Of a DNA stretch of 64,000 nucleotides, positions 17,501 to 21,583 are shown piece after piece. Every line of letters begins with the position of its first letter. Positions within the stretch are counted from its first letter, which is position 1. The DNA comes from Planctomycetota bacterium. GTDB lineage: Bacteria; Planctomycetota; UBA11346. The notes under the pieces were generated by a model. It saw nothing but the letters and a program-made list of their open reading frames with translations. It did no database searches and was not told the DNA's origin. The stretch lies in the NCBI GenBank assembly GCA_038231435.1, contig JBBRLJ010000017.1:1-64000 (forward strand), read 5' to 3'. Made by a program: the position numbers and the translations under genes.

Positions 17501-17603
17501 GGATGGTCCTCCTGGCGGTGGCGGGCGGGAATGCGTTCATCATGCGGATTAACCTCGGGGATCGCAATTGCCCCGGCTCACTCGCATTGGTACATATTCA
17601 CCC

Positions 17604-18380
17604 ATGAGCTCCATCTTGGCCGCTGCTCCGCTGTATCCCGCGGGCCTGTCCGAGCCGCCGCGCATCGATCAGATCGCAGTGGCCGTGCACGGCGCGAACG
17701 AGCGCGAGCGTTACCACCTGCCCGGGCGCTGGTGCCTGCACTTCTACACCTACGAGGCCGAGATCAGCGTCGATGGGGTCGATCTGCCCATCCGTCCGGG
17801 ATACGTCGGCGTCTGCCCGGCTGGCGCCGACATGCGCTACCACTACCGCGGCCGCGGATCGATGCATGCGTACGCGCACTTCCGCATGTCAGCTGGTTCG
17901 GCGGCGGCCTCCTTGCCGGCGATGCAGGATCTCGGTCCGCGCTTCGCTGCGCTGAGCACCGCCTTTGGCGAAGCCATCGGCTGGCACGCGACCGCGCCGC
18001 GCCGCGCCGAGGCGCGGCTGTGGGACGTGCTGTGGGAACTGGCGGTGCGGCGCGATCCGGCCTGCCACGCGCTGGTCGAGCAGGCCCGTCACCATATCGA
18101 GATGCGCCTGTCGGACCGCCTGTCGGTGGCGGGGGTCGCAAGCGTGCTCGGCTGTTCGCACAATCACCTCACGCGGCTGTTCCAGCGCGACCTGCGCATC
18201 ACCGTGGTGGGCTACATCCGCAACCGGCGCGCCCAGCGCGCTCGCCATCTGCTCCGCCATTCGACCATGGCGATCGGCGCGATCGCCGCCGAGGTCGGCA
18301 TCCGCGATCCACACCTGTTCAACAAGGTGATCCGGCGCGAGCTGGGAAAATCGCCGCGCGGGGTGCGCGAGGCGGGGTGA
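17604..18380 (+). CDS. AraC-family transcriptional regulator, divergent from phyH
   Basis: C-terminal double HTH 'LSVAGVA...HLTRLF...IAAEVGIRDPHLFNKVIRRELGKSP' and a cupin-like N-terminus. Confidence 0.92.
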   Translation: MSSILAAAPLYPAGLSEPPRIDQIAVAVHGANERERYHLPGRWCLHFYTYEAEISVDGVDLPIRPGYVGVCPAGADMRYHYRGRGSMHAYAHFRMSAGSAAASLPAMQDLGPRFAALSTAFGEAIGWHATAPRRAEARLWDVLWELAVRRDPACHALVEQARHHIEMRLSDRLSVAGVASVLGCSHNHLTRLFQRDLRITVVGYIRNRRAQRARHLLRHSTMAIGAIAAEVGIRDPHLFNKVIRRELGKSPRGVREAG

Positions 18381-18404
18381 CGTCAGCTCAGACCGGGAAT
18401 CGGA

Positions 18405-18953
18405 TCAGGCCAGGCGCGCGCGCAACTCGGCGAGATCCATGACCTCGCCCGGAGTCGGCCGGTCCATCGCCACCATCGCCAGCAGGTTCGGCTCGCCCTG
18501 CAGCGGCGCCGGCCACGGCGGTGGCGCGTGCAGCCAGATCCCGTCGCGGCGCATGTGCGAGCGGTCGCTCGAGAGCGTGGCGTGGTATGCGGCACCGCCC
18601 ATGACGCGGAAGAGCGGACGCAGCTCGACGGGAATCGGTTCGGCGAACGCGGCGGCGAGGTAATCGCCGGCGGCGACAGGGGCGCCCAGCGTGCTGTCGA
18701 GATCCCACGCCTGCCATGGCGAGCCCGCGTGGCCGCGCGAGAACAGCAGGACATGGTAGTCCCAATCGACATGTTGACCGCCGGCGATGGTCTGGCGCTT
18801 CACGCGCACGCTGCCCGACAGAGACGAGACGATCGCCACCAGCACATCGCCCTTGGCCACCAGGGGATGGCGGCACAGCCGCCAGACGTTCTCCTCGCAG
18901 AAGAATGGCTGGTGGTCGAAGCCGAAGCCATGGCCTCCGCAGCCGACGCTCAC
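18405..18953 (-). CDS. Protein N-terminal glutamine amidohydrolase homolog (NTAQ1/WDYHV1 family)
   Basis: FCEENVWRL, WDYHV, DLDS, FRV, SDRSHM and PPPWP occur in the same order as in eukaryotic NTAQ1. Start uncertain; GTG at 18953 chosen. Confidence 0.9.
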   Translation of the reverse strand: MSVGCGGHGFGFDHQPFFCEENVWRLCRHPLVAKGDVLVAIVSSLSGSVRVKRQTIAGGQHVDWDYHVLLFSRGHAGSPWQAWDLDSTLGAPVAAGDYLAAAFAEPIPVELRPLFRVMGGAAYHATLSSDRSHMRRDGIWLHAPPPWPAPLQGEPNLLAMVAMDRPTPGEVMDLAELRARLA

Positions 18954-18972
18954 GCGGGTGTCCGAGCGATGA

Positions 18973-19719
18973 TCATGCTCGAGGCGCGGGCTTGCGGTCG
19001 AGCAGCTGGCCAAGCGGCTCACGGTTGACCCAGATGTACTCGACGATCGAGGCCACGCTCACGACCGCGCATACCCAGGTCGCCCAGAAGGCGTAGGTCA
19101 GCTGCCACGGGTAGCGGTGGTTCCAGAAGGCGGGCAGGGCCATGATCGAGATCAGGGCGATGCCTTGCAGCCAGGCCTTGAGCTTGCCCGAGGCGCGCGC
19201 GGCGAGCACCACGCCCTTGGTCGCGGCCATGGCGCGCAGCGCGCCCGCGATGATCTCGCGCAGCACCATCAGGAAGACCGGCAGCCAGGGCACCATCGCC
19301 GCGCCGAGTACTGCCTGGCCAGCGGAGGCGCCGACGACGTACACCGGCTGCATGCCGCGGATGGCTTCATAGGACACCGTCTCGGGGGCGGACATCGTCG
19401 CGCCCGCGGCCTGCTGCGCGGCGCCAATGACCACCTCGTACCCGATTCCACCGGCCGGCAGCAGGAAGGCGAGGAACACCGAGATGCGGTAGAGCACGTC
19501 GCAGAACGGATCGGCGAGCTTGCCGAAATCAGAGACCTCGCCCCGCCGGCGGGCGATCCGCCCGTCGGCCAGGTCGGTATATTCGGCGAGCGCGCACAGC
19601 AGGCCCGCTGCCCAGAAGCAGTAGTTACCCTCGATCGGCAGCAGCAGGTACGAGCACACGATGCATGGCATCAGCACCAGGCGCGAGAGCGTGATCTTGT
19701 CGGCGAGGGTGATGTACAT
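18973..19719 (-). CDS. pgsA: CDP-alcohol phosphatidyltransferase (PgsA-like)
   Basis: TDLADGRIARRRGEVSDFGKLADPFCD signature; several transmembrane segments. Confidence 0.85.
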   Translation of the reverse strand: MYITLADKITLSRLVLMPCIVCSYLLLPIEGNYCFWAAGLLCALAEYTDLADGRIARRRGEVSDFGKLADPFCDVLYRISVFLAFLLPAGGIGYEVVIGAAQQAAGATMSAPETVSYEAIRGMQPVYVVGASAGQAVLGAAMVPWLPVFLMVLREIIAGALRAMAATKGVVLAARASGKLKAWLQGIALISIMALPAFWNHRYPWQLTYAFWATWVCAVVSVASIVEYIWVNREPLGQLLDRKPAPRA

Positions 19720-19826
19720 GCGGAGCCGCAGAGAGACTACGTACGACCCGGTGCGCACCAACGGGCAACCAGGAGGAGAGCGGATACCGACAGCCGGAGG
19801 GCGGCCAGCGCCGCCCGGGCGAGCGT

Positions 19827-20702
19827 TCAGGGCAGCAGCTGGTGCTTACGCATGCACGCCAGCAGCGCATCCTTCTTCGCCGGGGTCATGGTGATCATCG
19901 GCAGGCGGAACTGCTCCTTGCAGAAGCCCAGCGCCGCGACCGCGGTCTTCACCGGGATCGGATTGGTCTCGCTGAAGGTGACCTTCTGCAGGTCGCACAC
20001 CAGCGCGTGCAGGCGTCGGGCCTCGGCGGGATCGGGCTTGGCGCAGGCGTCGACGTACTGGCGCATCAGCTTGGGCGCGAAGTTGGCCACCACGCTGATC
20101 ACGCCGATCGCGCCCAGGGCCATGAAGGGCAGCGTGTAATGATCGTCGCCGCTGATCACCGGGATGCCGCGCTCGACCATCTCCTGCACCTGCTCGCAGT
20201 TGCCGGTGGATTCCTTGACGCCGGCGAGGTTGCCGAGCGCCATGACGCGCGCAGTGGTCTCGGGCAGCAGGTTGACGCCGGTGCGCCCGGGGACGTTGTA
20301 GAGCACGTACGGGAGCTTGGTCGCCTCGCGCACCGCCTTGAAGTGCTGGAAGAGGCCTTCCTGCATCGGCTTGTTGTAGTACGGCGTGATGGTGAGGATG
20401 CCGTTGGCGCCGAGGCGCTCCGCCGCCTGGGCCAGGCTCACCGCTTCGCGCGTGCTGTTCGACCCCGCGCCGGCGATCACCGGCACGCGGCCCGCGGCCG
20501 TCTGCACCACCTCGCCGATCACCTGGTGCTGCTCGTCGTGCGAGAAAGTCGCGCTCTCGCCGGTGGTGCCGCAGGGCACGATGCCCTGGGTGCCTTGGGC
20601 GATGTGCCACTCGACCAGCTTCTTCAGCGCCTTGAAGTCCACGCGATCCCCGTCGAAGGGCGTGACGATGGCGACGATGGAGCCGGTGAATGGGGGGGCC
20701 AT
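19827..20702 (-). CDS. dapA: 4-hydroxy-tetrahydrodipicolinate synthase
   Basis: GTTGES, PYYNKP, LYNVPGRT, GVKE (Schiff-base Lys), NPIPVK. Confidence 0.96.
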   Translation of the reverse strand: MAPPFTGSIVAIVTPFDGDRVDFKALKKLVEWHIAQGTQGIVPCGTTGESATFSHDEQHQVIGEVVQTAAGRVPVIAGAGSNSTREAVSLAQAAERLGANGILTITPYYNKPMQEGLFQHFKAVREATKLPYVLYNVPGRTGVNLLPETTARVMALGNLAGVKESTGNCEQVQEMVERGIPVISGDDHYTLPFMALGAIGVISVVANFAPKLMRQYVDACAKPDPAEARRLHALVCDLQKVTFSETNPIPVKTAVAALGFCKEQFRLPMITMTPAKKDALLACMRKHQLLP

Positions 20703-20842
20703 GACATCCTCTTGTGGACGCGCAGACTCAAGCGGGCGTGGACGGGTGCCAGCGAAAAGGGCCGGTCGCTGCCAGGCAGGCGCCCGGATCCATGGCGGCG
20801 TCCGTTGCCCGTGATGGCGCTTCCGCCATGCTGCCGGCCCCG

Positions 20843-21583
20843 ATGACCGCCTTCAGCGCCAACCTCAACAAGATCGCCCTGCTGCGCAACACCCGCGACA
20901 ACGGCATCCCCGATCTCGAGCGCTTCGGCGAGCTGTGCATCGCTGCCGGAGCGGATGGCCTCACCGTGCATCCCCGGCCGGATCACCGCCACACCCGCCC
21001 CGCCGACGTCCACGCCCTGCGCGCGCTGACCGCGCGTCGCGGTGTCGAGTTCAACATCGAGGGCTATCCCACCGAGGACTTCCTGTCCCTGACGTGCGCG
21101 AGCCGGCCGCAGCAGTGCACGCTGGTGCCAGACTGGCCGGACCAGCGCACCTCTGACCACGGCTGGGACGCGGCGACCCACCGTGACCTGCTCACCCGGG
21201 TGGTGGCGCGGCTGAAGGCCTGCGGCATCCGCGTGTCGCTGTTCCTCGATCCGCAGCCAGCGCTGATCCCGCACGTCGTCGCCACCGGCGCAGACCGCAT
21301 CGAGCTCTATACCGAACCCTACGCCCGTGCCTTCGCCAGTAGCGAGCGCGCGGCGATGATCGCACGTTACGCGGAGACCGCGCGTCTGGCCCAGGTGGCG
21401 GGGCTCGGCGTCAACGCCGGACATGACCTCAACCTCGAGAACCTGCGGCCCTTCCTCGACGGCGTGCCGGAGGTGCTCGAGGTCTCGATCGGGCACGCGC
21501 TGGTGAGCGAGGCTCTCGAGCTCGGCATCGCCGAGACCGTGCGCCGGTACCACGGCATCTGTCACGCGCCGAGGTCTGCATGA
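20843..21583 (+). CDS. pdxJ: Pyridoxine 5'-phosphate synthase
   Basis: NLNKIALLRN, TVHPRPD.RH, TSDHGW, IELYT, NAGHDLN, EVSIGHAL. Confidence 0.96.
   Translation: MTAFSANLNKIALLRNTRDNGIPDLERFGELCIAAGADGLTVHPRPDHRHTRPADVHALRALTARRGVEFNIEGYPTEDFLSLTCASRPQQCTLVPDWPDQRTSDHGWDAATHRDLLTRVVARLKACGIRVSLFLDPQPALIPHVVATGADRIELYTEPYARAFASSERAAMIARYAETARLAQVAGLGVNAGHDLNLENLRPFLDGVPEVLEVSIGHALVSEALELGIAETVRRYHGICHAPRSA

Follow-up and report, generated by a model that had tools for sequence, protein, structure and literature searches.

The window analyzed here, a 64,000-nucleotide stretch of a Planctomycetota genome, encodes a real and intact bacterial member of the NTAQ1 family of N-terminal glutamine amidases. 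Judging from its residues, the product is very likely a cytoplasmic deamidase of N-terminal glutamine, and the enzyme has, in our estimate, an even chance of serving as an optional entry tier of an N-degron pathway in this organism. The gene and the codons of its predicted active site are positioned as follows.

18405..18953, minus strand: NTAQ1-family N-terminal glutamine amidase, 182 aa, GTG start (PF09764 and human 4W79 match)
18894..18899, minus strand: codons of catalytic Cys19 and of Glu20 (human Cys28 and Glu29; alignment to human NTAQ1; PMC4214742, PMC11168063, accessible parts)
18750..18764, minus strand: WDYHV strand with Trp64, Asp65 and Tyr66 (human W78, D79 and Y80) and catalytic His67 (human H81)
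18702..18704, minus strand: catalytic Asp84 (human D97; human alignment), kept in 265/265 homologues among the matches listed
18552..18569, minus strand: SDRSHM with His133 and Met134 (human H148 and M149; alpha-amino recognition; human alignment)

The reading frame runs from a GTG at 18953 to a TGA at 18405 and is the only NTAQ copy in the genome. The six motifs that a first-pass annotation had read as signatures of the NTAQ1 family were recovered in the claimed order (FCEENVW at residue 18, WDYHV at 64, WDLDS at 83, FRV at 115, SDRSHM at 129, and PPPWP at 144), and its family assignment held in a profile search, in which residues 14-179 aligned to positions 1-182 of the 184 in PF09764 (E 3.5e-32; 111.9 bits, cut-off 27). 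Because this match is full-length, the motifs are not a product of chance. PF09764 was the sole family matched in a Pfam scan of the product, none of the NCBIfam models matched it, and all 15 PDB sequence matches at E ≤1 were human NTAQ1 constructs, with 4W79 spanning residues 16-177 (E 7e-17). Codon GC was 0.74/0.51/0.87 at the three positions in a genome of 67% GC.

Human NTAQ1 uses Cys28, His81, and Asp97 for catalysis (PMC4214742); it grips the free alpha-amino group of its substrate via Glu29, Asp79, Tyr80, His148, and Met149 and chooses glutamine by the length of the side chain (PMC11168063; both papers, like the others below, are cited from their accessible parts). The Cys-His-Asp triad claimed for the planctomycete protein is complete, with C19/H67/D84 corresponding to human C28/H81/D97, and the triad aspartate is the first D of DLD, which refines the earlier reading of this motif. 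All five residues of the alpha-amino set (E20, D65, Y66, H133, and M134; human positions counted along the alignment) are kept, and the human alignment predicts that Trp64, Asp65, and Tyr66 bind the substrate backbone and alpha-amino group. Among the matches listed, E20 was conserved in 264/264, D65 in 264/265, Y66 in 262/265, H133 in 264/265, and M134 in 265/265 sequences, figures that are partly circular because the 265 distinct homologues (120 listed of 137, plus the best 150 of 3051) were picked by similarity. A departure is Lys52, at a site where most homologues listed have Trp, Leu, or Phe. The structural model (pLDDT 94.2, predicted with a 94-sequence alignment) superposed on human NTAQ1 with TM-scores of 0.84-0.87, which agrees with the kinship to the human enzyme first read from the motifs, and the top 15 structural matches were all human NTAQ1 entries. 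In 263 homologues, the median distance from the start to the catalytic cysteine is 15 residues; here the cysteine is residue 19, so near the N-terminus that there is no space for a signal peptide. By homology to the human enzyme, Cys19 would form a thioester through which the side-chain amide of an N-terminal glutamine is hydrolyzed to glutamate, its free alpha-amino group remaining bound, and the intact triad and alpha-amino residues argue for an N-terminal rather than an internal glutamine deamidase.

The gene stands next to the following features.

19827..20702, minus strand: dapA (dihydrodipicolinate synthase), first gene of the run (PF00701, E 1e-91)
18973..19719, minus strand: pgsA-like CDP-alcohol phosphatidyltransferase, upstream neighbor (PF01066; below the TIGR00560 cut-off)
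18950..18976, minus strand: 8-codon mini-ORF between the pgsA-like gene and NTAQ, overlapping by 4 bases at each end
17568..18380, plus strand: AraC-family regulator converging on NTAQ (PF12833)

The same-strand dapA-pgsA-ORF run described in the first-pass annotation stood in its order, with dapA first and NTAQ last; its middle gene can only be called pgsA-like (TIGR00560 score 90.8 vs 109.1). The ATG of the mini-ORF overlaps the upstream stop (ATGA) and its TGA overlaps the NTAQ start (GTGA), an arrangement that is possibly a bridge for translational coupling but may be due to chance. In the same-genus genome G002, pgsA and dapA lie upstream of NTAQ in the same order, the gap between the pgsA-like gene and NTAQ is smaller, and the mini-ORF is not seen as such. 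The two same-genus genomes likewise each have an AraC gene convergent with NTAQ. No sigma-70 promoter-like or terminator-like site was found in 18200-20900.

Neighborhoods elsewhere were drawn from our own ORF calls and Pfam scans, with the gammaproteobacterial loci inspected by eye. The 110 ORFs flanking 31 NTAQ loci (from 34 non-window loci, three same-genus loci being omitted) included no aat, no ATE, and no clpS, and the 54 ORFs at 15 myxobacterial loci included a single aat (G419), 3.1 kb off with three genes between. A conserved operon was considered and rejected: dapA-pgsA linkage recurred in G002 alone, neighbors varied by lineage, and no metabolic operon was common to the carriers. 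A NUDIX hydrolase lay at most two genes from NTAQ in 5/31 loci (L001, L004, L010, L014, L015), directly downstream in L014 and L015, which is probably lineage synteny. An FHA-domain gene was found directly upstream at L002:4363-4992; RNA 3'-phosphate cyclase genes adjoin or lie near NTAQ at two loci, and two further loci have a DNA polymerase X gene next to NTAQ (L078:2033-3088, L087:5692-6723, L008:5550-7109, and L076:1-1473 for the four).

Homologues in other genomes also showed several fusions. A PrmA/lysine-methyltransferase-like gene, which we take to be METTL20-like, is fused to NTAQ in P0167 and lies directly downstream of it in two myxobacterial genomes (L072:723-1340, L073:708-1451). 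A low-molecular-weight phosphatase domain is fused to NTAQ in P0175 and P0199, which fall in separate 50% clusters; arginine phosphatase has a link to ClpCP, and this fusion, if it carries an arginine phosphatase, would link NTAQ to protein quality control. The fusion was not recovered in metagenome DNA, where eight loci matched the NTAQ part only. NTAQ follows an MMACHC-like domain in P0230 (weak Pfam match, E 0.0013) and in P0278, a Myxococcota bacterium protein whose N-terminal part resembles that of P0230. An internal TGA follows codon 146 in the homologue of G627 (L155:1465-1902), which may be truncated. Neither the 11 longer representatives nor the 10 long homologues carried a fusion to aat, ATE, or clpS; for the latter, with 7999 candidates scored, this is weak evidence.

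The idea of a degron role had been tied to the presence of an ATE/Bpt-like transferase, Aat, and ClpS in the carrier genome, and the source genome has all three. The ATE/Bpt-like transferase (ATE_N and ATE_C; contig C36, L027:1210-1884) scores over the PRK01305 cut-off (NF002346), Aat (C14) scores over that of TIGR00667, and two ClpS-family proteins (C13 and C60) both fall under the NCBIfam cut-offs. The ClpS of C60 keeps N-D-D-x-T and the histidine, presumably the functional residues, and that of C13 has Asp at the position of E. coli His66. The Hsp100 unfoldase on C46 is nearest ClpC (968 bits vs 540 for ClpA), and a ClpA profile search of the genome gave nothing above the cut-off. Two genes upstream of clpC lies a stand-alone Clp N-domain protein (C46, L148:429-1124), possibly a ClpC2-like regulator. 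An NTAN1 search of the genome gave no match, a weak result since no control gave one either.

The donor pocket of the transferase bears on which amino acid it might attach. In yeast Ate1 the pocket is made up of S255/S273/E277/Y289, its counterpart in Vibrio Bpt reads A/A/Q/L, and an acidic residue 277 is required for arginylation (PMC9351520); the S. cerevisiae residue is given elsewhere as Asp277 (bioRxiv 2022.07.20.500667). Our C36 transferase reads S158/M176/E180/L192, with K207 equivalent to K304, so that the acidic residue and the lysine are kept and two sites are hydrophobic, and three gammaproteobacterial control sequences read exactly A/A/Q/L, the Bpt pattern. Glutamate occupied the 277 position in 68/91 bacterial ATE-like sequences, several of which read S/S/E/Y (a fetched subset of the matches; loci L027, L040-L069, and L088-L147). 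These pocket residues suggest that the C36 transferase may add arginine, and the retained acidic donor residue suggests the order Gln>Glu>Arg>Leu>ClpS for the source genome; they also lead to the prediction that many non-gammaproteobacterial "Bpt" homologues transfer Arg, not Leu. The acidic pocket occurred in 24/32 NTAQ carriers and 44/59 non-carriers, and is a lineage trait that gives no evidence of coupling to NTAQ, because it is equally common without NTAQ and also occurs in Aat-negative genomes. The rule that an Arg-type ATE implies Aat was rejected, with an acidic pocket in 11/13 sequences from Aat-negative non-carriers. In the host-phylum family f4 (e.g., L088-L092), an ATE-like gene was found in 10/24 genomes and aat in 0/24, and the five sequences read have the acidic pocket; an Arg tag would have no known ClpS route there, because aat is missing.

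In the pathway that we propose, endoproteolytic fragments with an N-terminal glutamine would be converted by NTAQ into fragments beginning with glutamate, to which the C36 transferase would attach Arg or Leu. Arg-tagged fragments would be capped with Leu or Phe by the Aat of C14, and ClpS would pass the tagged protein to ClpC-ClpP for degradation. N-degron proteolysis through ClpS and ClpC1 has been reported in M. smegmatis (bioRxiv 2024.06.12.598358).

The distribution of NTAQ in bacteria is patchy. The gene was present in 9/41 relatives, 11/301 genomes (at least 90% complete) of the host phylum, 16/151 of Myxococcota (the phylum of a Myxococcales genome), and 5/230 of Gammaproteobacteria above the cut-off (one weak partial match dropped, one genome unscored), and a search of 14 control genomes gave no match. 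Each phylum or class sample contains its center genome, itself a carrier, and the gammaproteobacterial background, unlike any other tally, includes two unpublished genomes (G523, G601). Among the matches listed, named homologues came from Planctomycetota, Myxococcota, Bradymonadales, Gammaproteobacteria, and one Spirochaetaceae protein; the Atlas cluster of homologues was mostly bacterial, with Myxococcota most frequent, and none of the 15 pattern matches was a viral locus.

Across these samples, NTAQ is nested in Aat-ClpS genomes, and in two of three groups in ATE-positive ones, and ATE is not required. In the host phylum, ATE_C was found in 10/11 carriers vs 56/301 genomes of the background and Aat in 11/11 vs 115/301, with five of the 11 carriers belonging to one genus. 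Counted by family, ATE was present in carriers of 4/5 carrier families vs 19/83 families (p ~0.009, inflated by kinship) and Aat in 5/5 carrier families (p ~0.011, inflated by related families). Within the host's own family, ATE occurred in 8/9 carriers and 14/17 non-carriers. All five gammaproteobacterial carriers had Aat, and all five had ATE_C, vs 120/230 in the background, a weak contrast (p 0.06; 0.12 without the center genome). In Myxococcota, ATE_C was detected in 5/16 carriers, two of them on weak matches (E 4e-17, 3e-15), vs 30/135 non-carriers (p 0.53; 35/151 overall). A search for ATE_N gave no match in the remaining 11 myxobacterial carriers, for which completeness was not given, nor in G215 (93% complete), G325, or G327; distant ATE copies can escape such a search, because G419, with a divergent ATE_C, was missed. 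ClpS was present in 34/34 carriers tested (carriers alone counted). The first-pass proposal of a deamidation tier thus fared unevenly: the partner genes of the source genome and their frequency in host-phylum carriers speak for it, but 11/16 myxobacterial carriers have no detectable ATE/Bpt, NTAQ does not cluster with pathway genes, ATE is equally common in non-carriers of the host family, and the unfoldase is ClpC rather than ClpA. Such a tier is plausible in the source genome and not general in bacteria.

The myxobacterial carriers without ATE point to a second use of N-terminal glutamine deamidation, even if the degron role fails. NTAQ might deamidate N-terminal glutamine before pyroglutamate forms, keeping N-termini open to aminopeptidases for repair or peptide recycling with no part in degron recognition, a possibility that we regard as doubtful for this organism. 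It would explain the 15/54 carriers without detectable ATE/Bpt, the missing operon, and the patchy spread. The genome (~88% complete) also yielded no glutaminyl cyclase, which suggests that N-terminal glutamine is not deliberately cyclized here. However, such a repair function leaves unexplained why NTAQ is nested, in the host phylum, among genomes that have ATE and Aat, and the genome already has one pyroglutamyl peptidase C15.

Another reading keeps the degron and replaces the transferase: N-terminal glutamate could be read by some other component, such as an Aat with altered acceptor specificity or a divergent ClpS, with Aat-ClpS as the invariant partner. Among all 54 carriers, Aat was found in 53, including 16/16 from Myxococcota, and ATE in 39; a second ClpS-family protein, or a divergent one, is present in many carriers, and E. 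coli Aat has been reported with unexpected acceptor residues (bioRxiv 2021.07.26.453911). However, Aat is common in Myxococcota regardless of NTAQ (122/151), its enrichment in carriers there is weak (p 0.04; 0.08), and in the accessible literature, Aat and ClpS of E. coli disfavor acidic residues. We consider this reading improbable.

Action on internal glutamine or on a small-molecule amide, as in the protein-glutaminase of Chryseobacterium or effector deamidases, is very unlikely. Protein-glutaminase is a secreted enzyme with internal glutamine as its substrate. It shares the papain/transglutaminase-like triad and is the next fold after NTAQ1 among the structural neighbors of our model, but with TM-scores of 0.34-0.37 as against 0.84-0.87 for NTAQ1, and the planctomycete protein has an intact alpha-amino recognition set, no export signal, and no metabolic operon common to carriers.

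The bacterial origin of the gene was examined in an unrooted tree built from hand-selected rows, 51 from bacteria and 26 from eukaryotes, in which one branch split the eukaryotic from the bacterial sequences (support 99/87, the bootstrap not being fully settled) and the bacterial branches were at least as long as the eukaryotic ones. The NTAQ of the same-phylum genome G061 formed a 99/99 clade with seven Planctomycetota sequences and one record labeled Deltaproteobacteria. This clade gives indirect support to a planctomycete host, as does a PSCyt2/DUF1549 domain of a named Planctomycetota MAG, which matched the source genome at 53% identity (E 6e-69). Several acquisitions within the host family were not supported, as a single clade of nine sequences was not rejected (p-AU 0.87). 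Both same-genus genomes have orthologues, and dN was lower than dS in 9/9 ortholog pairs, with dS compressed by high GC3. Eukaryotic contamination, or a recent and decaying transfer from a eukaryote, is largely refuted and hardly credible: although the assembly is incomplete (87.6%, contamination 3.35%) and NTAQ has a patchy distribution and a faster divergence than the ATE-like gene (54-55% vs 79% identity to the same-genus copies), the gene lies on a contig of 108,675 bases amid bacterial housekeeping genes, has a matching codon bias and same-genus orthologues under dN < dS, and is parted from eukaryotes by the 99/87 branch.

Our proposed scheme could have a wider reading, in which conversion to glutamate by NTAQ, Ate1-type arginine transfer, capping by Aat, and delivery to ClpS-ClpCP constitute the eukaryotic Arg/N-degron front end in Planctomycetes and some other bacteria, and eukaryotes may have inherited NTAQ1 and Arg-type transfer from bacteria, since the bacterial NTAQ branch is equally deep. 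We regard this extension as unlikely, and the tree gives no direction of origin because it is unrooted.

Described bacterial pathways comprise primary and secondary residues only (PMC3692480, bioRxiv 2021.07.26.453911), with Aat and Bpt as the only tiers in the accessible parts of PMC11441550, PMC3692480, and bioRxiv 2021.07.26.453911; they end at secondary residues, and deamidation tiers are presented as eukaryotic. The first-pass statement that no such tier had been described in bacteria was right in that our literature searches, largely without subscription papers, turned up no work on an NTAQ from bacteria, nor on a bacterial ATE that transfers Arg, but bacterial members of the family had already been counted: PF09764 is listed with 198 members from bacteria, 1 from archaea, and 1103 from eukaryotes in Table S1 of PMC10318531, the accessible main text of which mentions an N-end-rule role alone. 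The accessible portions of bioRxiv 2024.03.11.584350 and PMC8037982 do not mention bacterial NTAQ, and human NTAQ1 has been expressed in an E. coli reconstitution system (PMC13478464). An active bacterial NTAQ, if true, would add a third tier in which N-terminal glutamine is a lineage-specific degradation signal, and would bear on the origin of the eukaryotic pathway.

Comparison with known systems places the window protein closest to human and mouse NTAQ1 (WDYHV1, C8orf32; PDB 4W79, 3C9Q, 6KGJ, and 8JJF-8JK2), with which it shares a full-length family match at 29-30% identity (structural alignment), the predicted fold, the triad, and the alpha-amino recognition residues. It differs in falling in the bacterial branch, in its length (182 vs 205 aa), and in having Lys at human Trp65, and the bacterium has ClpS/ClpC instead of a ubiquitin N-recognin. 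The protein-glutaminase of Chryseobacterium (PDB 2ZK9, 3A54) is likewise a bacterial glutamine deamidase with a Cys-His-Asp triad, but aligns at only 14-19% identity (TM-score 0.34-0.37). [quoted passage not shown] In the eukaryotic Arg/N-degron front end formed by NTAQ1 and Ate1, no NTAN1 counterpart was matched in our genome (a weak search) and two of the four pocket residues are hydrophobic in the planctomycete transferase, yet the likeness extends to a putative deamidase paired with a transferase that has equivalents of the acidic Glu/Asp277 and of Lys304.
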